Virus record (IMG/VR): IMGVR_UViG_3300024286_000006
Location: 1-47,398 of that record
Strand: one strand, 5' to 3'
Length of the DNA stretch: 47,398 nucleotides
Origin: a virus
Lineage: Duplodnaviria; Caudoviricetes
Shown piece by piece: positions 1 to 47,398 of this stretch (position 1 is its first letter; each line of letters starts with the position of its first letter). Position numbers and translations under genes: made by a program. The notes beneath the pieces were generated by a model that was not told the DNA's origin, made no database searches, and saw only the letters and a list, made by a program, of their open reading frames with translations.

Positions 1-1230
1 GCCGTTATGGTAAGGTAACGTCGTGTTCAGTACTGTATCGATATAGTACAGCGATGTGGCGGTGTAGTGTTGTTGGGTAATGTGATGTTGCGGTATAGTG
101 CTGCAATGTGCAGTCTTGGTAAGGTGCCGCAATGTACAGTCGAGGTACAGAGGTGTTTTGTACAGCAAAGGTATAGTGTAGTCGTGCACAGTGTTGGTAC
201 AGTGTTGTTTTGTATCGTGCCGTCAAGTGTTGGTCTAGTGCAGTTCTGTGTCGAACGTGTAGGTACAGTTTTGTATCGTGTAGTGATGGTGAAGCGCCGT
301 TCAGTTGGGGTATTGTCAAGTCCTGTACAGTTCGGTGATGGTTAAGTAGGGCGCTGTTCTGTGTCGGTGGAGTGAAGTTCAGTAGGGGTATTGTAGAGTG
401 GGGTCTGATTTGGGTTGCGTAACGGTAACGTATCCCAACGTTAGGTGATGGTACAGTTAGGTTGTGTGATGTAATGGTAAGGTTGTGTTGAGCGGCGTGT
501 AGGTAACGTAATGTTAAGTACTGGTAGTGTAAAGTAAGGTGACGGTGGAGTGGGGTGGAGTCAGGTAAAATGCAGTGCCGGTAAAGCGCGGTACGGTATC
601 GGTAAAGCGCAGTGAAGTCCTGTCATGGTGGAGTGGAGCGCCGTAATGTCGGGTGTCGGTACAGTGAAGTGTTGTGGTGGTTGAGTGGAGTGGCGTTAAG
701 TATTGGTAACGCAAAGTTGGGTCAGGTAGTGGTAAGGTAGAGTGAAGTTATGTCACGGTAAAGTTGAGTACTCTGACGTTGCGGTAAGGTACAGTGGAGT
801 CGTGTTGGGGTAAAGTTGCGTAGAATACTCTGACGTCGCGGTATGGTGGAGTGTCGGTTAAGTAATGTGCAGCAATGTTGCGTAGAGGTATAGTGCAGTT
901 TAGTGTAGTTGGGTGCTGGTATCGTGTACTTCGGTGGCGTGATGGTATGGTATAGTCCAGTCTCGTCACGGTACAGTATGGTACCGTAGAGTGTCGTCAG
1001 GGTAATGTACCATTTTGTCTAGTGTCGTCGTGGTAAGGTACAGTGTTGTTCAGTGGCGGTAATGTGATGTGTCGTAAAGATCGTAAAGGTAAGGTGCGGT
1101 TATGTAGCGTATTGGTAAAGTCTAGTTAGGTGATGGTAAAGTGACGTTAGGCGACGGTACAGTGAGGTGACGTGGAGTAGAGGTGAAGTTCAGTCCGGTT
1201 TAGTGCCGGTATTGTTCCGTACAGTGTCGT
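1..1230 (+). repeat. Periodic NNN-GT pentamer array with NNN-GGT hexamer punctuation (~26-nt units); candidate non-coding guide-like RNA array, 5'-truncated by window
   Basis: Hand parse, e.g. aaggt-gccgc-aatgt-acagt-cgaggt / atagt-gtagt-cgtgc-acagt-gttggt / aaggt-agagt-gaagt-tatgt-cacggt. GT (sometimes GC) recurs every 5 nt with a variable triplet between; ~47 hexamers; ends abruptly at 1230 before the RBS of the next gene; no continuous ORF. The pattern is certain, the RNA function is inferred. Confidence 0.9.
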
Positions 1231-1260
1231 GAATCAAAATTAGGAGAGGAGAAAATATGA

Positions 1261-1815
1261 ATGGCTCAATTAACATCAGGTGAGAAACTTTCTCTTGCGC
1301 AGCAAGGGGCATATGGATGCACGATTCGATGTGACAACCCAGATTGCGGGAAACCAATTCTGCAACCAATCCACTTTACCGGACCAAAAGGTAGAGGGGA
1401 GTTTTGCTCTCGCGAGTGCCGCGATGCCGTTCACGGTGAACGAACCAAGCTAAAGCGAAAGTATAAAGACCTTGCAGGACTTGGGTACGTTCCACTACTT
1501 GGGTCTGATGTTGATCGCATCGAACATCAAGTGATGGAATGGATCATCTGCAAGCCGCACGAACAGAATTGGAACTTCAACACCATCGTTAAAATGATGA
1601 AGGGAACTGATCGTGGCGCCATTCGTGAAGCCATCAACGGGTTGCTTGAAGACAAAACACTTTACCGCGTTGGTCGAACAATGTCGATCAGCAAACCAGA
1701 TGAACATCGCGAAGCCCACAAAGAGTTCAGACGGGAGGTCGGGAAGGAACAGCGATTGAAAGAGCGAAAGAAGAAACTGCGAGAGAAGGAGCGTGAGAAG
1801 AGCAACGGCGCATAA
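1261..1815 (+). CDS. Putative DNA-binding protein (Cys zinc finger + winged-helix-like segment + basic tail)
   Basis: Strong RBS (aggagaggag); CDNPDC...FCSRECR zinc-finger pattern; WNFNTIVKMM...AIREAINGLLEDKTLYRVG resembles a wHTH; K/R/E-rich C-terminus. Confidence 0.55.
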   Translation: MAQLTSGEKLSLAQQGAYGCTIRCDNPDCGKPILQPIHFTGPKGRGEFCSRECRDAVHGERTKLKRKYKDLAGLGYVPLLGSDVDRIEHQVMEWIICKPHEQNWNFNTIVKMMKGTDRGAIREAINGLLEDKTLYRVGRTMSISKPDEHREAHKEFRREVGKEQRLKERKKKLREKEREKSNGA

Positions 1816-3624: not shown

Positions 3625-3804
3625 ATGAAGAACGTATTGTTACGGTTGTGGAAGGACGAGTCGGGTCAAGACCTGACCGAGTACGCGTTGTTGCTCGTGT
3701 TGCTCGCGTTAGCTGCGATTGGTTCTCTCAGTGCATTGGCTACGGCAATTAACGGGGTCTGGGTCAATGTCGCCAGCAACCTTTCGCAGAACACAGGCAC
3801 CTAA
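3625..3804 (+). CDS. flp: Flp/Fap family type IVb pilin (59 aa, below ORF-track cutoff)
   Basis: AGGAG RBS; MKNVLLRLWKDESG|QDLTEYALLLVLLALAAIGSLSALATAINGVWVNVASNL: charged leader, G at the prepilin cleavage site, E+5/Y+6 Flp motif, hydrophobic helix. Confidence 0.9.
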   Translation: MKNVLLRLWKDESGQDLTEYALLLVLLALAAIGSLSALATAINGVWVNVASNLSQNTGT

Positions 3805-8651: not shown

Positions 8652-9431
8652 GTGCCATCGTTTCAGCCGCGCTATATCACTGAACAAGAACTGGCCCAGT
8701 TCGGATTGCCTGATGTTGACTCACAGCCCAACATCATGTCGTTCGTGGACGGGGCCAGTTCTCTCATTGACGCATATTGCGGCAGGACGGATGGTGACGG
8801 TAATGGGAGTTTGGTTTACACAACGTACTCCCATCGAGTGTTGCTGCCTGAAGGGCGGAACATTTTTCGTTGTATGTTTCGCCCAATGGCTGCTCCTGAT
8901 GTGACCGTCAAGCAGTCGCTCGCAGCATCAGGTCAGTACTATGACACGGGATTTTTCCCAAGCACGATTTATACCAAGGGATTAGGACTATCGCCGATCA
9001 TTGGAGCAAGTGGTCGGTATGCGTATTCGCGGCGCGGATCGCAGCAGGTTTATCCTGATCTCAACTACGGCGCGAACGTTTTGCAGATTGCATCGTTCTT
9101 TGGCGGGCCGCCGCAGTTCACGCCAATCGATGTCAGCATGATTGACTTCGATCCAAAGACTGCCGAATGCTGGGTACCAGCTGGTCTCTACCTTGCGCAA
9201 TACACAGAGGTGGCGATCACTTACAACGCAGGTTACGATCCGCGCGATATGCCTAAGAACATAAAACATGCATGCGCGGCGCTCATTCGAAACTTCATGT
9301 CAAAGGGTGGTGGTACAACTGGCATGAAGTCGTTCTCAGTTTGGAGGGTGCAGGGAGAGTTCACTGAGGATCTGATCGATGCCACAGTTGCTCGCTGGCT
9401 GCAACCCTACACTACGGTAATCGCGTACTGA
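8652..9431 (+). CDS. Head-tail adaptor (gp6/gp15-like)
   Basis: YIT..EL, ASSLIDAYCGR, ITYNAGY...P.NIKHAC, WLQPY pattern; follows capsid. Confidence 0.75.
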   Translation: MPSFQPRYITEQELAQFGLPDVDSQPNIMSFVDGASSLIDAYCGRTDGDGNGSLVYTTYSHRVLLPEGRNIFRCMFRPMAAPDVTVKQSLAASGQYYDTGFFPSTIYTKGLGLSPIIGASGRYAYSRRGSQQVYPDLNYGANVLQIASFFGGPPQFTPIDVSMIDFDPKTAECWVPAGLYLAQYTEVAITYNAGYDPRDMPKNIKHACAALIRNFMSKGGGTTGMKSFSVWRVQGEFTEDLIDATVARWLQPYTTVIAY

Positions 9432-9432
9432 A

Positions 9433-9975
9433 ATGGGCATTCCGTTTGGTTTCGGTGTCAGGCAGTTGTACGATGCGCACCTGAACTTCTGGCGACCAGG
9501 GTTGCAGTGTGCTCTTCGGATCGAGAACTACGATGTGCCCGACAACGGTTACGGTGAACTTGGTTTTCAGTTTTCACCAACCGGACAAATCATCGATCAG
9601 GCCGGTTTCAACGACTATCAAATTCTTCCGCAGCCCGAGGTGATGGAAATACCGACCAAGGATGTTGGGTTGCCGATGAAGCAGTTAATGTTCGGCGTGA
9701 AAAAGTTCATCATTTCGCACACATTTGTTCTCCAGCAAATGCGTGACAGAAATCTATCAGACCCGTTTCAGGTCTGGAGGGATAAGAGAGTTTTAGGCAT
9801 TGCATACCCCAGGTATTTTGGTGCAACAGCAGCGCAGTTGGGGGATGCAGGCGTGAGGGAGACGCGATTGTTTCAGATTCAATCCGTCACCCATGACGAA
9901 ATTGCCGGACAGTCAATTGCTTGGACGTTGATCTGTCAAGCAAACGAAGCAGCGGTTACCGAGGAAGGGAGTTAA
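9433..9975 (+). CDS. Putative head closure/stopper protein
   Basis: Position after adaptor; beta-rich C-terminus FQIQSV...WTLIC. Confidence 0.5.
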   Translation: MGIPFGFGVRQLYDAHLNFWRPGLQCALRIENYDVPDNGYGELGFQFSPTGQIIDQAGFNDYQILPQPEVMEIPTKDVGLPMKQLMFGVKKFIISHTFVLQQMRDRNLSDPFQVWRDKRVLGIAYPRYFGATAAQLGDAGVRETRLFQIQSVTHDEIAGQSIAWTLICQANEAAVTEEGS

Positions 9976-10524: not shown

Positions 10525-11040
10525 GTGGGGCTCCCGCTTTCATTCTTGTCTCCGCGTCTGATGTTAGACGCAGATCAGTTGGATTTTCTTCGGCTCGAAC
10601 TTGGCCAACAGAACAAACTGATTGAGGCGGGTGTGAAGGTCGAAGGCGAAGCGGCAGCCTACGCCCTTGTTTGGGAGTGGGGCAACGCCCGCCAGACTCA
10701 GCCAGGGCCCAAGACCACTTTGGGTGTTAACCCTGACGGTGAACGAGTCTATTTGTCGATTCAGGCACCGACGGGGTACATCCGAGTTCTGACTCCTCAG
10801 TTTCTCGCCGCGTTACAAGAGGAAATGGGGAGAGTTCGTTTTACTAGCGCGTCCACCGGGGCCGTCACTGACGCCCTCGAGAAGGCTGCAATCCGTACTG
10901 CCAGGCGGATAGCGGAACTAATCAGGGAGCATGCCCCGGTGGATAGCGGTGAGTTGCATGATGACATCAAGGTCGTTATGCCTGGTGATTCGTTGCTGGA
11001 CCAAGCTGAGGCAGATGGCTCGTTGTTTTTGGAGGATTGA
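10525..11040 (+). CDS. Neck/tail-completion protein (HK97 gp10-like)
   Basis: AYALVWEWG and APVDSGELHD motifs typical of gp10-like neck proteins. Confidence 0.6.
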   Translation: MGLPLSFLSPRLMLDADQLDFLRLELGQQNKLIEAGVKVEGEAAAYALVWEWGNARQTQPGPKTTLGVNPDGERVYLSIQAPTGYIRVLTPQFLAALQEEMGRVRFTSASTGAVTDALEKAAIRTARRIAELIREHAPVDSGELHDDIKVVMPGDSLLDQAEADGSLFLED

Positions 11041-11498
11041 TGAGTGTTACGGCGCACAGAGTGAAAGGAAAAACATTCTATAACCAAAAATTGTATGGCG
11101 CGAACTTCATCGGCCAAGACTTAGTGCACGCTGACTTTCGATCAGCCACACTAATGAACGCAAACTTCACCGATGCGGATCTAAGCTATGCAAATTTTGA
11201 AGGCGCCAACTGTCGCGGGGCGATCTTCGACAACTGCCGCCTCTATCGCGCCAACTTCAAAGACGCAGCGTTGGCTGGCTCGGTCTTCAGACCAAAGGAC
11301 GCATTCGGTATCACGCTAACGATGGCGTGCGAAACTTTCGATGATGTGCAGTCAAGCGGCTTGTGGTATCTCTCGATGGTGATGTTGGCATTGCGAATGA
11401 AAAGCCCAGAAGAAGGGCTAGAAGAAAAGATTATTTCTGCCATCGGCACTGAACGGTACATGGGATTGCGGCATATTTTTGATCGACGAGTCTTCTAA
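11040..11498 (+). CDS. Pentapeptide repeat protein
   Basis: ANFIG-QDLVH-ADFRS-ATLMN-ANFTD-ADLSY-ANFEG-ANCRG-AIFDN-CRLYR-ANFKD A(D/N)(L/F)xx repeats; GGAGG RBS. Confidence 0.9.
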   Translation: MSVTAHRVKGKTFYNQKLYGANFIGQDLVHADFRSATLMNANFTDADLSYANFEGANCRGAIFDNCRLYRANFKDAALAGSVFRPKDAFGITLTMACETFDDVQSSGLWYLSMVMLALRMKSPEEGLEEKIISAIGTERYMGLRHIFDRRVF

Positions 11499-37260: not shown

Positions 37261-37454
37261 CGCTTGTCGAATATCTGAAACTTCGCAGGCAGGTTGAGCA
37301 AGCCGACCCCCAACTGATCGAGCAGGCGCAAGCTTTAGCGAAGACCATTACAGGTGTGACAACAGATCAAAAGTGGGAAGCACTGATTGAGAAAGCAGAA
37401 CATGACGAACGAAAACGAATCGAAAGTGAATCGGAAAGTGGGACTCAAGCGTGA
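37257..37454 (+). CDS. Hypothetical small helical protein
   Basis: ATGA coupling; GAGG RBS. Confidence 0.5.
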   Translation: MTLVEYLKLRRQVEQADPQLIEQAQALAKTITGVTTDQKWEALIEKAEHDERKRIESESESGTQA

Positions 37455-38442
37455 GGAGTTCCCCATTTTCTATTTATCTGGACGCTTCGGAACCGATGAC
37501 AAGATCGAAGCAGAGTGGGTACGAAGAACTGGGTGCAAATATCGTTGCTACAGTTACGTATATGTTGCCCCTGGGGCCTTCTATCACAGGCCAAGGATGG
37601 AGAGTGCCTACCGGGCATCAGTAGAGCATAAGTGTAGAATCGCGATGGACTCGGGAGCGTTCTCGTTCCATAAATTTGTTTCTGGTGGTGTAGGTGCGAC
37701 TTCTGGGCGCATGATGGCGAAAGCGAACGCTATGCGCAAACTAGAAAATGTCGAAGCCTTCCGCCAGAAGACCATTGAAGATTATGTGGAGTTCATCAAG
37801 CAAGAGCGAAAGAACTGGGACTTCTATTTCACATTCGATTACGTCAAGCATGCCCCAACTGTCTATAAGATTACCAACGAGTTGATGAAACAAGGCGTGA
37901 TGCCTACTCCTGTGTTTCACGGAGATGAGGGGCTTGACTGGCTCAAGCGGTATATCGATGATGGTCACAAGCTGATCGGTATCGGTTCTGCGGACAAAGC
38001 AAGACGGACGTGGAAAGAGAAACGATACTATTTCGATCAGGTCTTTAACATGACCGAGAAGCACGGCGTTATTTGTCATGGGCTGGCGATCACCAGCCTT
38101 TCGCTGACATTCAGCTATCCCTGGTACAGTGTCGATTCAAGCACCTGGGCGCGAATCTCCGGCTTTGGGCACATCATCATGGTCGATCCCTTTACTCGGA
38201 CAGCCGGACAGGTGCATGTTAGCACGCGAGAGAGTAAAGGGAATCTGAAGTCGTTCAACCGCATGCCAAAACATGTGCAGAAAGAAATCCGCCGTCAGGT
38301 CGAGTCACATGGATTCGATTTCGACAAGGTGCGACGAAGTCTCGATGAGCGGTCAACATACAACGGGTGGATGTTCGCGAACTTAGCGAAACTCGACCTG
38401 AGAAAAGGCGAAGACAAAATCGAATGGGAAAGACTCCTCTAA
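37402..38442 (+). CDS. dpdA: DpdA-like DNA 7-deazaguanine transglycosylase (TGT fold)
   Basis: MDSGAFS, FTFD, PVFHG, IGIG, HGLAIT, YPWYSVDSSTW motifs of TGT/DpdA-like proteins; adjacent to folE and queD. Confidence 0.8.
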   Translation: MTNENESKVNRKVGLKREEFPIFYLSGRFGTDDKIEAEWVRRTGCKYRCYSYVYVAPGAFYHRPRMESAYRASVEHKCRIAMDSGAFSFHKFVSGGVGATSGRMMAKANAMRKLENVEAFRQKTIEDYVEFIKQERKNWDFYFTFDYVKHAPTVYKITNELMKQGVMPTPVFHGDEGLDWLKRYIDDGHKLIGIGSADKARRTWKEKRYYFDQVFNMTEKHGVICHGLAITSLSLTFSYPWYSVDSSTWARISGFGHIIMVDPFTRTAGQVHVSTRESKGNLKSFNRMPKHVQKEIRRQVESHGFDFDKVRRSLDERSTYNGWMFANLAKLDLRKGEDKIEWERLL

Positions 38443-39023
38443 CTCCTAATTGGGAAACCACGCTCGAAGCTGCGATTGGGCAGATGTTGACAACACCCGG
38501 ATTTGCAGCAGTGATCTCTGAAGATCATATCAACGAGACACCTGAGCGTGTGGTTAACGCGTTCAAAGAGTACTTCTCTGGCGTGTATGATGACCCAGCC
38601 GCAGTGCTGAAAAAAGGATTTGAAACAGGTGCCTATGATGAAATGGTGTTTGTCAAAAATATTACATTTGTTAGTTTTTGTGCTCACCACTTGACACCAA
38701 TCATCGGGAAAGTTCATTTTGCATACCTGCCGCGTATCAAAATTGTAGGCTTGTCAAAGATTCCACGCATGATTGAAATACTTGCACGTCGCCCACAGGT
38801 TCAGGAAAAGCTAACACGGGAAATCGTAGATGTATTCAATAATGTTGTTGAGCCGAGCGGATGCGGTGCTGTTGTAGAGGCGTTGCATTTGTGCATGACA
38901 ATTAGAGGTGTAAAGAAAGATCAAGCTGTAACTAGAACAACGGCGTTGGCAGGTGCATTCAAGAGAAACGAAGTGAAGTCTGAATTTCTGGATGGTGTTC
39001 GAGGAGAGAAGGGGTGGCTATGA
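38424..39023 (+). CDS. folE: GTP cyclohydrolase I
   Basis: ETPERV, FCAHHL, GLSKIPR, RRPQVQE, HLCMTIRG. Confidence 0.95.
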   Translation: MGKTPLTPNWETTLEAAIGQMLTTPGFAAVISEDHINETPERVVNAFKEYFSGVYDDPAAVLKKGFETGAYDEMVFVKNITFVSFCAHHLTPIIGKVHFAYLPRIKIVGLSKIPRMIEILARRPQVQEKLTREIVDVFNNVVEPSGCGAVVEALHLCMTIRGVKKDQAVTRTTALAGAFKRNEVKSEFLDGVRGEKGWL

Positions 39024-39376
39024 CAATTGTGATTTGTGTGTATGCAAGAACGCGGTTTGTTGCGTTTCATCAGTGGAAGGATGCACCAGAAGACGCAAAG
39101 TACCTGCGGTCGTCACATCGGCATGAATTTCATGTTGAAGCGGCCGTACTTGTAACTAAGAGTGATCGAGAAGTTGAGTTCCATCACTTGAAGCGTGATC
39201 TTGATTTGGCAATCAAGGAAGAGTACCGATCAAACAGCGTTGACAAACCAATCGAAGCATCGTGCGAACAAATTGCGATGACCATTGCCACGATGCTGCG
39301 AGAAAATGACTACGATGTGAAATATGTAGATGTGTCAGAAGACGGTGAGTGTGGAGGGCGTGTTGAGTACAACTGA
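39020..39376 (+). CDS. queD: QueD-like 6-carboxytetrahydropterin synthase (T-fold)
   Basis: FHQW...HRHEFHV His cluster, DREVEF, SCEQIA, VSEDGE; ATGA-coupled to folE. Confidence 0.75.
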   Translation: MTIVICVYARTRFVAFHQWKDAPEDAKYLRSSHRHEFHVEAAVLVTKSDREVEFHHLKRDLDLAIKEEYRSNSVDKPIEASCEQIAMTIATMLRENDYDVKYVDVSEDGECGGRVEYN

Positions 39377-42250: not shown

Positions 42251-42503
42251 CGAGTTGAAAAAATACACTCTTATTTCTGTGCTTGCTTGGTTTGTTCTGT
42301 TCGTTGTTGTCGCTGTTGCGGGATACACCAAGTGGCAGCAATACCATCTGAAAAAGATTACGCCGATACCGAAGAAAGTTCCTATTCAAGATCGCGACGG
42401 GAACACAGTCGGCTACAGCTATGATTGTGGTCCGGGATGGGTAGCTGTTCCAACGTATGAGGTGTACTGCGTTCTTGACCCCAACGCTAAGGGAAACAAT
42501 TGA
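42243..42503 (+). CDS. Small membrane-anchored protein
   Basis: Single TM segment; C-terminal YDCGPGW...YC. Confidence 0.55.
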   Translation: MSDELKKYTLISVLAWFVLFVVVAVAGYTKWQQYHLKKITPIPKKVPIQDRDGNTVGYSYDCGPGWVAVPTYEVYCVLDPNAKGNN

Positions 42504-45235
42504 GTCCTCAGTATACTAATCTGCTCTGGCCTGAAGCCGCACCGATCACCCCAGGAAAAAAACCAGCACCTGCAATGCATCGTCGTGGATGTGCGTTTTG
42601 TCCACGCAATGGTGCTGATGGCATTCGCAAGATCAAAGGGCATGTGAGGGGCAAGAAGTTGTTCACCTGGGCGCAGTCTCCTGGGCCGACTGAAAATGAA
42701 GTCGGGAAGGAACTGGTCGGTAAAGCGGGCAAATGGTTTTGGAAAGAAATGGAAGCGGTTGGGCTCACACGAGACGACTGTGACATTCAGAACATGGTTC
42801 GATGCTATCCAGCCGATGAGGTTCATGGTCGGTTGGTCATGCGCGACCCAACGAAAGAAGAAATCTTCTGTTGCTCACTGTACACAGATCAGGCAATTGT
42901 CAAAAGTCGCGCAAAGGTACACATTGTTCTAGGACAGATTGCAGCAAAGCAGCTGTTTGGGAAAAGTTTCAAGCGGGACAGTATGGTGTTCTGGTCAGAT
43001 AAGTTGAATGGTCGAGTGGTGGTTCTCGATCATCCATCCTACCTGATGCGGGCCTATGTACCAGAGCATCGGCGCAAGCAATTTCGGTACGGCTTGAAAG
43101 CAGTTGTGCGAATGCTGGCAGAGCCAGCTGGGCGGTTTGGTTTTCTCAGAGCAAAGAACTACGAAGGTGTTACAACTGTCAAACATGCCAGAGACATGAA
43201 ACGACAGATCCTGGCCGCAGCGGCTAAAGGCGAACGGATTGCCGCAGATATTGAAGAGGGTTGGGTCAATGGTGAATGGAAGGCACTGTGCTATGGTTTC
43301 GCATTCAAGAAAAACCATGCCTGGACGGTAGCACTCGATCATCCGCTGGTGGATGTTAAGCAGAGAGTCAGACGAAAACTGAAGCGGATTGTTCGCTCGA
43401 TTCTTTCGAACCCGAATGTTAAAAAGGTTTGTCATCATGGTTCACACGATCAGCCTGAGAGTGAAAAACTTCTAGGCGGTCGATTCCGATCGTACGATTT
43501 TGACACGAACTATTCTGAATACTTCAAATGGCCTGGGCGTCGATCATACGCCTTAGCAGAGATTACCAAAGTCCGCTTCCCTGAGTTCTCCGGCTACAAA
43601 GAAGTCATAATGCCAGAGGCTGCACCAGAGGGGTGGACATATCAGAAGGCATCGAAAGCCGGTAAGCTTAATTTTGCCAAAATACCGTGGAAGAAACTCG
43701 TTCTCTATAATGGTGCTGACTGCGATCTCACTAAGCGCATCGAGAAATCCACTCAAGATGTAGCGTTGCCGCTCTTAAAGGTGTATCAAGACGCAGCCTT
43801 CACACTGGATTGGATGGAAAAGAATGGCCCGTACTTTGACTACAAGCAGTGTGAAGCGTTAGCTAAAATCTATCCGTTTCGAATCAAGAAAAAAGCGCAG
43901 CAGCTACAAGTTCTCGCCGGTGACCCCCACTTCAAGCCAGGCTCTCCTCAGGATGTTGCGCGCATTATCTATGATGTTCTCGATCTTGAACCTATCAATA
44001 AAGGAAATCGGAGTACAGCAAAGAACATTCTTGAGTTGCTGTCGACTCAGCATCCGCTGCCTAAGTTGCAGATCGAGTATCGGAAAGACGTAAAGCTTGA
44101 CTCAACCTATCGCAAGGGATTCAAGAAGTGTGCAGATGAACACAAAGGTAGACTGTTTACCAAGTGGTGGCTGACGGGCACAAAGACTGGGCGAATTTCA
44201 TCAGGTGGCAGCAAAGACGGTGAAGAGATAACCACAGTTAATCTCCAGAACATACACGGCGACCCGCAAGTGCAGAACATGCTGGTCTCTGATCGTCAGT
44301 GGCGTGACATCTACAACAAGTGGAAAGAGGATGGGGAGTACGATCCGAAATGGTATCGAGAGTTCTGGGATAGGCAGATTTATCTAGCGTTGGACTATTC
44401 ACAGAACGAACTGCGGTTCTTTGCGCAGTCGTCTGGTGATGAGGCTTTGATTGAACAGTTCAATCAGGATGAGGATATTCACTGTCTGGTTGGTAACGAG
44501 ATCACGGGTTGGTCGGTTGAGGTCATTGCCAAAGACAAGCAGAAACGAAAGCTGATTAAAAACTTCCATTTCGGTCTGCTCTATGGTTTGACAGAAGACG
44601 GCATGCTCAACTACCTCAAGGTGAATGGCATCAAGTCATCGAAGAGTGAAGTGCATGACATGATGACGCGTTACTTCAAGAAGTACAAGCGGGTGAAAGA
44701 GTTCATTCGGGCGAAGCATGAGGAGGCGCGTAGGTTTGGGTATGTGACAAATATTCTTGGCTTCAAGTGCCCGATTCATGTGCCTGAGGATGAAGATGAA
44801 AGAACCGGTGGCGCATTCTGGGCGAATCAGGCCGTGAACACGCCGATTCAGGGTGGTGCACATCAACTGTTGCTAATGGCGCTTGCATCGTTGAAGCGGA
44901 AACGAAAAACCTATGCACTGATTCGAACGCCGAATATGGAAATCCACGATTCAATCGTATGCAGTGTGGCTTTGCGTGATCTTCGCGAAGCAACCAAGCA
45001 AGCTGTTTATTTGCTAGAGCAAGAGGTGCTGAATGTTCTGCGCAACGACTTTGGGTTGAAGTGGAAGATTCCGTTGAAGGCTGAACCAAAGGTCGGATTC
45101 CGATTCGGCGTGACGGTTGACTATACACCAGAAAGCAAGATCGGGCCAACGCTGGTTGAATGGTGCAAGGCTAATAAGAAATCGAACATTGCTTTGCAGA
45201 AAGAGTTGCAAGCAGCAGAGAAATTGGCGGCATAA
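42500..45235 (+). CDS. polA: Family A DNA polymerase with N-terminal family-4 UDG-like domain and 3'-5' exonuclease
   Basis: UDG4-like: CAFC, QSPGPTE...LVGKAG, NMVRCYP, LGQIA, HPSYL. Exo: ADIE, HHGSHD, YNGADC. Pol: TKTGRISS, NLQNI, DYSQNELR, KNFHFGLLYG, NTPIQG, IHDS. Confidence 0.93.
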   Translation: MSPQYTNLLWPEAAPITPGKKPAPAMHRRGCAFCPRNGADGIRKIKGHVRGKKLFTWAQSPGPTENEVGKELVGKAGKWFWKEMEAVGLTRDDCDIQNMVRCYPADEVHGRLVMRDPTKEEIFCCSLYTDQAIVKSRAKVHIVLGQIAAKQLFGKSFKRDSMVFWSDKLNGRVVVLDHPSYLMRAYVPEHRRKQFRYGLKAVVRMLAEPAGRFGFLRAKNYEGVTTVKHARDMKRQILAAAAKGERIAADIEEGWVNGEWKALCYGFAFKKNHAWTVALDHPLVDVKQRVRRKLKRIVRSILSNPNVKKVCHHGSHDQPESEKLLGGRFRSYDFDTNYSEYFKWPGRRSYALAEITKVRFPEFSGYKEVIMPEAAPEGWTYQKASKAGKLNFAKIPWKKLVLYNGADCDLTKRIEKSTQDVALPLLKVYQDAAFTLDWMEKNGPYFDYKQCEALAKIYPFRIKKKAQQLQVLAGDPHFKPGSPQDVARIIYDVLDLEPINKGNRSTAKNILELLSTQHPLPKLQIEYRKDVKLDSTYRKGFKKCADEHKGRLFTKWWLTGTKTGRISSGGSKDGEEITTVNLQNIHGDPQVQNMLVSDRQWRDIYNKWKEDGEYDPKWYREFWDRQIYLALDYSQNELRFFAQSSGDEALIEQFNQDEDIHCLVGNEITGWSVEVIAKDKQKRKLIKNFHFGLLYGLTEDGMLNYLKVNGIKSSKSEVHDMMTRYFKKYKRVKEFIRAKHEEARRFGYVTNILGFKCPIHVPEDEDERTGGAFWANQAVNTPIQGGAHQLLLMALASLKRKRKTYALIRTPNMEIHDSIVCSVALRDLREATKQAVYLLEQEVLNVLRNDFGLKWKIPLKAEPKVGFRFGVTVDYTPESKIGPTLVEWCKANKKSNIALQKELQAAEKLAA

Positions 45236-46034: not shown

Positions 46035-46260
46035 TTTTTGGTTGGCGATGGCATATAACGCAATGTTTCTTATGGATGTGCTAATCATAACTGCACTATC
46101 GACAAGCGTGATTCGGGTTCTTTCAAACAGTTTTGTGGAGTCCATGACAGCCGCTGCTGTTGTTTGGTATAAAGAACGGTTGAACTTCATCGAGCAGTTG
46201 GGTGAGGCGAAAGTGGATGACGCAGAGGATGGACCGGAAGGTAAGAAGAACGTACATTAG
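46027..46260 (+). CDS. Small membrane protein
   Basis: AAGGAG RBS; hydrophobic N-terminus. Confidence 0.55.
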   Translation: MSSFWLAMAYNAMFLMDVLIITALSTSVIRVLSNSFVESMTAAAVVWYKERLNFIEQLGEAKVDDAEDGPEGKKNVH

Positions 46261-46273
46261 AGGAGGACTGGTA

Positions 46274-47398
46274 ATGAGTGATTGGCGTCAAGAAGCGGCT
46301 GACCGTTTGAAAGAAAAGACAAGCAAAGGCCGTTTCAAACTTGTAGAGGGTGACAACACGATCCGCATCTTACCGCGGGTCAAATCAAAGAAGACAACTC
46401 CGTATTTGGAGTATCTCGTTCACCGCGACGTTGGACCGAACAAACGGTTCCTTCGCTGCGGGCATGCTATTCATGGCGAAGGTGAGTGCTGGCTGTGCGA
46501 CAAAGCAGCCAAGCTAGCCAAATCAGACAGCAAGACTAAACAGAAGATCGCTGCGGCATTGCAGCCCAAAGAACAGTTTGTAGTGCAAATTGCCGTTGTC
46601 CAACCAGACAGTGGCAAGATGCGTGGCCCGTATCTGTGGACAGTGTCTACAGGCGGCAAGAAAAGTTTGGCGATGCGTTTGCTAGGTGTGTTGAAAAACC
46701 CGAAGAAGGATTGCATTGACCCGAAGCGGGGATACAACTTGAATATCGAGCGAACTGGCACTCAGCTTGATACAACGTACACCACACCGATTGTAGACGA
46801 AGAACCGTCAAAAGTCCCGAGCAAAATCCTAGATCGTTGCAAGGGATTCAACGAACTTATCCCGCCCTACTCCGAAGAGCAACAGAAGGCTGCTTACTTT
46901 GGGCAAGATTCGCGGGATGGAGAGGACGAGGCGATGGCAACGAAGAAAAAGCGGCGTGAAGAAGAGGATGAGGAGGACGAGACACCGAAGAAGAAAAAGA
47001 AACACGGTCGCGATGAAGAGGACGAAGACGAGTCTGAGGACGAGGAAGAAGAGGAAGAGGACGACACCGAATCCGAAGACGAGGAAGACGAAGACGAGTC
47101 ACCAAAGAAGAAAAAGAAAAAGAAGTCTGGTGACGAAGAGGACGAAGACGAAGAGGAAGAGTCTGAGGACGAGGAAGACGAAGACGAGTCGCCCAAGAAG
47201 AAAAAGAAAAAGAAGGGCGCCGAGGAAGAGGACGAGGAAGAAGACGAAGAGGAAGAGGACGAGTCCGAAGAGGACGACACTGAAGAGGAAGACGAAGACG
47301 AGACGCCGAAGAAGAAAAAGAAAAAGCCGGCGGATGAAGACGAAGAGGAAGAGGACGAAGAGGAGGAGCCTGAGGAAGAGGACGAAGAGGAGACACCC
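46274..47398 (+). CDS. gp32-like single-stranded DNA-binding protein with long acidic/poly-Lys tail (3' partial; absent from ORF track)
   Basis: AGGAGG RBS; MSDWRQ...FKLVEGDNTIRILP...H...C...CWLC...DPKRGYNLNIERTG..LDTTY, matching gp32-like SSB motifs; frame open to the window end. Confidence 0.8.
   Translation, partial: MSDWRQEAADRLKEKTSKGRFKLVEGDNTIRILPRVKSKKTTPYLEYLVHRDVGPNKRFLRCGHAIHGEGECWLCDKAAKLAKSDSKTKQKIAAALQPKEQFVVQIAVVQPDSGKMRGPYLWTVSTGGKKSLAMRLLGVLKNPKKDCIDPKRGYNLNIERTGTQLDTTYTTPIVDEEPSKVPSKILDRCKGFNELIPPYSEEQQKAAYFGQDSRDGEDEAMATKKKRREEEDEEDETPKKKKKHGRDEEDEDESEDEEEEEEDDTESEDEEDEDESPKKKKKKKSGDEEDEDEEEESEDEEDEDESPKKKKKKKGAEEEDEEEDEEEEDESEEDDTEEEDEDETPKKKKKKPADEDEEEEDEEEEPEEEDEEETP
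46934..47398 (+). repeat. Purine-rich low-complexity coding repeats (D/E blocks alternating with (S/T)PKKKKK)
   Basis: gacgaggaagacgaagacgagtc-cc-aagaagaaaaagaaaaagaag recurs at ~47078 and ~47168, with a related copy at ~47285. Confidence 0.85.

Follow-up and report, generated by a model that had tools for sequence, protein, structure and literature searches.

A phage-borne array of five-nucleotide repeats with regular six-base steps resembles staggered VIPR guide arrays and belongs to a family that appears to be read in triplets

The tailed phage contig IMGVR_UViG_3300024286_000006 begins inside a tract of short degenerate repeats, which raises the question of what this array encodes, in which units it would be used and by which rule its variable bases would be read. 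The whole stretch analyzed here (the window, 47,398 nucleotides, 47.4 kb) is a linear fragment of a phage genome with a completeness of 42%; it encodes a portal protein, a helicase, a primase and DNA polymerase A, and these genes all lie on the plus strand. VIPR are phage systems related to CRISPR, which were first described in 2026 and have been proposed as the ancestor of CRISPR effectors (10.64898/2026.04.26.720920). The same source names YNNNG as an alternative repeat consensus to GGY, and its text describes staggered arrays, in which 1-nt phase shifts are proposed as guide boundaries without experiment or RNA-seq confirmation. The features of the window array and its surroundings are as follows.

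4..1233, plus strand: GT-NNN pentamer array, a probable vrRNA (guide) array, defined by a parse with controls and cut by the contig start.
4..1208, plus strand: 47 six-base steps (NNN-G, then GT, with A as the next base in 36 of 47), delimiting blocks of 3-7 repeats with a mode of 5 (26 nt).
103..128, plus strand: 26-nt stretch absent in the strain of run X4, inside a two-copy 26-nt duplication (92-147) and exactly one 26-nt period long.
1209..1233, plus strand: last block, five plain repeats read from the sequence, directly before the next ribosome-binding site and without a structured tail.
1261..1815, plus strand: ORF of 184 aa with a cysteine-rich N-terminus, adjoining the array, with no established link to the system.

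Positions 4-1215 were parsed into 233 GT-anchored steps, comprising 184 steps of 5 nt, 47 of 6 nt and two of 4 nt (mean step 5.19 nt), with a score of 358.5; the best of 100 shuffles reached -35, and the best score elsewhere on the contig was -162.5. The anchor is intact in 221 of the 233 steps (GT in 207, GC in 14), and 58 of the 64 possible triplets are used. Copies within the array are mostly just 60-80% alike, and local duplications are present. The tandem 5-nt repeats with alternating fixed and variable bases are a defining feature of VIPR. The base preceding GT in plain repeats is variable (A 79, T 42, G 32, C 31), and the fixed GGY trinucleotide of canonical VIPR was not found, nor was the type II VIPR format of 9-16 repeats with a structured 3' tail. 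Positions 1-1260 contain no inverted repeats, the single terminator-like match (1195-1209) is weak and at shuffle level, and folding of positions 600-900 gave a z score of -1.65. The array also lacks the direct repeats with spacers and nearby cas genes that define CRISPR arrays: no conserved repeat family was detected in it and no cas family among the 49 proteins of the window, and Rfam and tRNA scans of the window gave no match. A 205-codon open frame on the minus strand (8-622) runs across the array, a length reached by 5.9% of shuffles. The adjoining 184-aa ORF has no Pfam or PHROG family and only Atlas matches under 0.9, and no relatives of it were found in viral contigs or in the 175 loci searched. 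Contigs of all four sequencing runs cover the array; run X1, possibly the source of the window itself, contains at least ~280 nt of array-like sequence upstream of the contig start. Upstream of position 1, the contigs of runs X1 and X3 reach about 695 and 1275 nt past the window, and in a metagenome scan for sequence preceding the array the window's own contig was the only match.

The initial annotation of this DNA had proposed that an NNN-GGT hexamer divides the array into about 47 units, mostly of 26 nt, and the parse recovered the same organization. The 46 intervals between the six-base steps measure 26 nt in 21 cases, 21 nt in ten, 31 nt in nine, and 36, 30 and 16 nt in two cases each; 46 of the 47 steps end in G and 35 have C or T as the third base. 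The reported excess of A after the hexamer was found with the identical count (36 of 47 as compared to 52 of 185 elsewhere, Fisher p 2e-9). Random indels, the alternative named in that annotation, do not produce such spacing, since the variance of step counts is 0.82 against 18.5 for random placement and none of 100,000 placements was equally regular. The hexamer counts were also reproduced, with 2-6 pentamers per unit instead of the claimed 1-6, and the array extends for five more repeats to position 1233. The 1-nt phase shifts inside one continuous array are those of staggered YNNNG VIPR, as defined solely in the legend of Fig. S18.

A partner gene was found in relatives of the array. A pattern scan with 27 fixed bases had no matches, even in the window itself, and a scan of viral contigs with the array consensus revealed 14 loci on 12 contigs, all carrying the same GY-NNN array with the extra G; a second pattern gave two new contigs among four loci. 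All 14 contigs found by DNA pattern alone encode a ~200-aa Cas7-like (RAMP) protein ending in a G-loop, with the gene beside the array in 13 contigs and elsewhere in one (L004, array at the contig end, RAMP gene at 8969-9562). In the reverse search, a same-strand array was present in 158 of the 160 loci fetched by protein, which were the best 80 of 584 viral and the best 80 of 128 genome matches. In 2.3 Mb of control DNA the same caller, set to a slightly higher threshold, found no array. The 173 loci are not independent and form 101 array families. The array lies on the RAMP-gene strand in 171 of them, and the strand of the window array was assigned accordingly. Thus, judged by its architecture and by this two-way association in relatives, the window array is a guide array of the VIPR type and agrees with the 'YNNNG' and 'staggered' forms in the literature.

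A structural model of the RAMP protein (pLDDT 78.5) matched type VII Cas7 (E 1e-6) and Csm3, and its clade comprises 5552 clusters, mostly from uncultured phage. Residue D177, which reads G1 in SUSP1-type proteins, is replaced by Gln in 164 of the 165 RAMP proteins parsed from the 173 loci; the Trp is kept, followed by Arg in 156 and His in eight. The family aligns with a Felixounavirus Vipr at the G-loop only (probability 40-50%), and the N-termini do not align; of the 14 residues that the structure paper names, 13 are present in the Felixounavirus protein used for this comparison. The anchor varies with the letters of the G-loop, with 77% GT in five G-F-L loci and 10% GT, 54% GC and 30% GA in 110 G-I-G loci (few loci, uncorrected for kinship). 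Locus L005 has arrays of 1.5 and 1.1 kb on both sides of the RAMP gene, and in L013 the gene is present twice, the second copy being shortened internally. BLAST of the window array against named phages gave three weak matches, and the one fetched lies inside a Felixounavirus type II VIPR array. The type II locus of Felixounavirus ASO1B (MZ726792.1, L176 2380-3853) is annotated as hypothetical proteins and a terminator; similar proteins were found in the records of 138 named phages, those of Gordonia, Mycobacterium and Pseudomonas among them.

Direct target searches remained at shuffle level for 14 rules on 1.5 Mb, for six rules per block and five rules across junctions on ~2.6-2.7 Mb, for six rules applied to 48 of the 173 arrays and 2.3 Mb of prophage and chromosome sequence from host genera, and for six rules with the window array on its own virus. 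The triplet rule gave 155 matches on 5 Mb as compared to 149 with shuffled arrays. Published VIPR target searches used pangenome-scale databases (10.64898/2026.04.26.720920), against about 5 Mb here. One 41-bit match, obtained under a rule of two bases without a skip, was put down to chance, five rules having been tried. Triplet-rule matches near start codons numbered 19 against 11.2 ± 3.5 expected, which is suggestive only. Two individual matches, both within chance counts, are a block of L130 that agrees at 17 of 18 bases with an ATG-led stretch behind a ribosome-binding-like motif (L072 16365), and a block of the L127 array (against L214) that resembles an extended -10 promoter box.

Since direct targets were absent, the joining of neighbouring variable bases was compared with that of natural DNA (103 arrays, 7536 pairs); the 6-mer tables were built from the masked flanks, and shuffling was confined to each array and position class. 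Whole triplets joined like natural DNA at gap 0 (z 7.8), as compared to z 1.7 at gap 1 and 1.1 at gap 2; the values with three or six skipped bases (z 3.6 and 5.2) are attributable to neighbour similarity or codon phase. The signal was positive in 74 of the 96 arrays with enough pairs, reversed for next-but-one repeats (-2.9), and persisted after subtraction of in-frame similarity (z 6.7), in pairs differing at two or more bases (6.2), without homopolymer joins (8.3) and in the 15 other GT-type arrays (z 3.6). Planted natural DNA gave 0.137 bits per pair, and the family signal, at 0.041, reaches only ~30% of this. Because the joined bases sit two letters apart in the array DNA, the origin of the signal should lie in the sequence with which the RNA is matched. 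Among words picked after the data were seen, joined triplets are enriched in GGAGG (36 vs 18.4), ATTATA (30 vs 17.8) and AGGAG, and depleted in GATC (40 vs 66.8), CTAG and TTAA, and CCTCC is not enriched. The triplets thus read like mRNA at ribosome-binding sites, which would argue for DNA rather than RNA targets. Tables from start regions fitted no better than those from coding or upstream DNA (z 7.2, 7.0, 6.9), and block-final ATG was preceded by a ribosome-binding motif about as often as expected (30 vs 26). A reading of the triplets as in-frame codons was rejected; stop triplets are just mildly depleted. From these sequence statistics, all three variable bases appear to carry information at the family level, and the array family probably uses a three-base code with no skip, instead of the two-base, one-skip code of VIPR. 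The initial annotation had taken each unit as a guide with ~12-18 variable nt, functionally like a CRISPR repeat-spacer unit; a guide-type array was supported, with information apparently carried by all three variable positions at the family level, the analogy to CRISPR being a loose one and VIPR the closest system.

If the variable bases are read, the next question is where a guide begins and ends. Across the 101 array families, 1337 junctions share the consensus G-Y-R-A-N-G-G-H-A, and 908 of 1294 intervals in the family representatives span 5-7 repeats. Of 98 arrays, 47 begin directly on a six-base repeat and 22 begin one repeat ahead of it, with ~15 expected for each from a random cut. The junction A is kept in 42 of the 48 first repeats of arrays starting on the step, so that this bias is not a parsing effect. 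The six-base step is therefore a real landmark where arrays tend to begin, which suggests that it marks block starts. The boundary drawn initially at GGT-A may lie one repeat further upstream, because arrays begin on the six-base repeat itself, one repeat ahead of GGT-A. An overlap of the second base of the hexamer with the following first base was not supported.

Whether each block is a guide of its own is a closer call, and we slightly favour separate single-block guides. Alternatively, two or three blocks (10-15 repeats) could form one guide, the step being a once-per-turn hinge or nucleation site and not a cut site; published vrRNA guides have 9-16 repeats (10.64898/2026.04.26.720920). The block length equals one filament turn, given in the accessible text of 10.64898/2026.04.26.720927 as ~25 nt of RNA and 5-6 subunits, and a ~26-nt block of this kind fits a single-turn guide and a hinge in a longer guide alike. 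Among related phages, neighbouring blocks are retained together in runs, and array 3' ends are spread over all positions, both as expected of longer guides. The triplet signal is larger beside the junction than in mid-block (shares 0.57, 0.38, 0.24). Pairs that span the step give a weak raw signal (z 1.2-1.9; 2.0 for GT-type arrays), and its share after correction for diversity and power, 0.15 ± 0.10 against 0.24 ± 0.06 between middle repeats, is not clearly zero, the drop being not significant. Against longer guides stand the tendency of arrays to start on the step with the junction A kept, and the block lengths, since a long block does not tend to precede a short one (lag-1 -0.049 vs null -0.094 ± 0.033), which argues against a device for long-range phase keeping. 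The comparison of junction-spanning with within-block targets, suggested in the initial annotation, gave neither above shuffles in the ~2.6-2.7 Mb and 2.3 Mb searched, with offsets of -1, 0 and +1 at the step, and so no cross-junction targets that longer guides would predict. We therefore regard longer guides as a possible but rather unlikely reading.

The second alternative concerns the code. Two paired bases followed by one skipped target base is the sole VIPR code demonstrated by experiment in the accessible text of the two primary reports (10.64898/2026.04.26.720920; 10.64898/2026.04.26.720927), and the third base of each repeat could then sit in a relaxed G1 pocket. Dinucleotides joined with one skip did give a small signal (z 2.8, as compared to 0.4 when joined directly), and among close arrays the third base is the most changeable (193 vs 131 and 142; 0.081 vs 0.049 and 0.076). 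However, nothing would make a permanently unpaired base continue into the following repeat as natural DNA does, and the third base scores z 7.2 in this respect. Single blocks would also be under-specified by dinucleotides: nine of 40 window blocks would match the phage's own contig, and perfect self sites occur for 62 of 1108 blocks, against 66 ± 5 in shuffles. A window block holds ~28 bits as triplets and ~19 bits as dinucleotides; the latter are too few against a host chromosome, so that the content favours a triplet code and single-block guides together. Self-avoidance was not detected for five rules, and the triplet rule with two mismatches gave p 0.03 (one of six tests). The canonical code is accordingly improbable for this family, and the triplet code is retained.

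Several observations bear on whether the window array is functional in its own phage. No vipr/RAMP gene was found in the 47.4-kb window or in G161, a 99.98% identical record extending 23.5 kb past the window end; since 70.9 kb in total contain no such gene, the VIPR membership of the window array rests on its architecture. Capsid-based relatives gave a similar picture, with no RAMP gene in the 29 searched (35 were found), nine of them near-complete, and weak matches to the array pattern in one of 29. The latter is a distant relative without the RAMP gene, which has two GC-rich matches on opposite strands (G182:C1 22177-22281, L381 and L382). These results suggest that the system is accessory in this lineage. 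An orphan or decaying array is thus conceivable, either as solo or decoy guides borrowing Vipr from another virus or as a relic, and solo vrRNAs have been described in the accessible part of 10.64898/2026.10.15.759431. In the window taken alone, the triplet signal is absent (z -0.9, -1.0 and +0.4; 187 pairs, about +1.3 expected); with a table from its own virus there is an unexplained z of 3.3 at gap 2, and A-to-A joins are scarce (13 vs 21.5). However, ~40 kb of the genome lies outside the examined sequence, among it the stretch just upstream of the array, a frequent site of the gene in relatives, and the anchors are almost all intact. The capsid relatives are also without a clear array, so that gene and array may have arrived together. 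We consider an orphan array very unlikely. Least credible of all is a DNA-level or coding repeat (a degenerate minisatellite, a helical-phase protein-binding tract or a minus-strand frame), for which the mean step of half a B-DNA turn, the local duplications and the minus-strand open frame could be cited, but which is countered by the tight tie to a same-strand RAMP gene, the absence of phase compensation, the divergence and triplet diversity of the copies, the frequency of equally long frames in shuffles, and the 26-nt strain deletion and the 5-nt indels in relatives, which would break any frame.

Other genes of the phage were recorded as side observations. A Flp/Fap pilin-like gene (3625-3804, plus strand; Pfam E 6e-5, below cut-off) lies just upstream of the portal gene, and its product could hinder pilus-dependent superinfection. 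Genes for a tRNA-guanine transglycosylase-like protein, GTP cyclohydrolase I and 6-pyruvoyl-tetrahydropterin synthase stand in a row at 37387-39376 (plus strand), which we take to resemble a 7-deazaguanine DNA-modification cluster. DNA polymerase A (42500-45235, plus strand) has an N-terminal uracil-DNA-glycosylase domain, and a pentapeptide-repeat protein is encoded among the head and tail genes (11037-11498, plus strand). The gene at 46202-47398, completed in G161:C1 11109-12398, codes for a single-strand-binding-like protein whose long repeat tail is acidic and lysine-rich.

The mechanism that we propose, and narrowly prefer as a whole, is a tail-less staggered VIPR-type array with triplet pairing, block guides and silencing. 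It builds on four directly supported elements, namely the pattern, the RAMP tie in relatives, the family-level triplet signal and the array-start bias. The array would be transcribed from the plus strand, and a small Cas7-like (Vipr) protein, presumably also encoded by this phage, would coat the RNA with one subunit per five bases. GT would be held by the protein and the three variable bases, the third probably included, would pair with three consecutive DNA bases, keeping the 5-RNA-to-3-DNA ratio of known VIPR with no target base skipped. The extra G would restore GGT about every fifth repeat, approximately one filament turn, and mark the start of a block reading ~15 bases. The blocks may act separately, and the complex would bind double-stranded DNA of rival elements or of the host, often at promoters and ribosome-binding sites, and probably silence transcription.

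More broadly, the large and mostly uncultured RAMP clade might harbor a second VIPR code, with contiguous triplets and a six-base step that splits the transcript into ~15-base single-turn guides acting at promoters and ribosome-binding sites, an extension that we offer tentatively and with less confidence than the mechanism itself. If so, this phage alone would carry at least 47 single-turn guides, which would be among the smallest programmable DNA-binding guides known and would represent a step between gapped VIPR and contiguous CRISPR reading. If the clade pairs three contiguous bases per repeat, the VIPR reading rule is not fixed, and the change at the G1-reading G-loop residue would be a testable link toward contiguous pairing. 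The staggered-array model becomes directly testable, as junction, block length and rule are now specified. The new element is the joining of triplets at the family level, and VIPR, YNNNG and staggered array forms were already known; an array without a visible effector lowers the value of this single contig.

Among known systems, the closest is staggered YNNNG VIPR, compared here by text and legend only, which shares phage-borne 5-nt repeats, the YNNNG consensus, the 1-nt shifts and, in relatives of the window, a lone RAMP gene. Neither a block length nor a junction motif or target rule is given for these arrays in that text; the window family has blocks of 3-7 repeats and statistics favouring a triplet code. 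Neither a triplet code nor a periodic six-base step is described in the accessible running text of the VIPR literature, as distinct from the figures, tables and Data S1-S4 of 10.64898/2026.04.26.720920. The type II VIPR of Escherichia phage SUSP1, as described in the accessible text, has the same 5-nt period, fixed G and pyrimidine, a ~200-aa RAMP protein, a thumb and a G-loop ending in W-R. It combines GGY-NN repeats (9-16 per guide) with a 3' pseudoknot tail and a one-base skip (10.64898/2026.04.26.720920; 10.64898/2026.04.26.720927), whereas the window family has two fixed bases, no tail and Gln in place of D177. The WGT/NN-type 5-mer clusters share the degenerate first position, the fixed GT and a Vipr-like fold nearby; they are modelled in the accessible text as XYZ-NN in strict 5-nt runs, with no periodic six-base step or triplet code described there (10.64898/2026.10.21.760802). 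Class 1 CRISPR-Cas systems (type III Csm3, type VII Cas7) have a repeat-spacer layout and other cas genes, in contrast to the window family, whose fixed bases are interleaved every five; what they share with it is the fold of the partner protein and an RNA coated by a RAMP filament.
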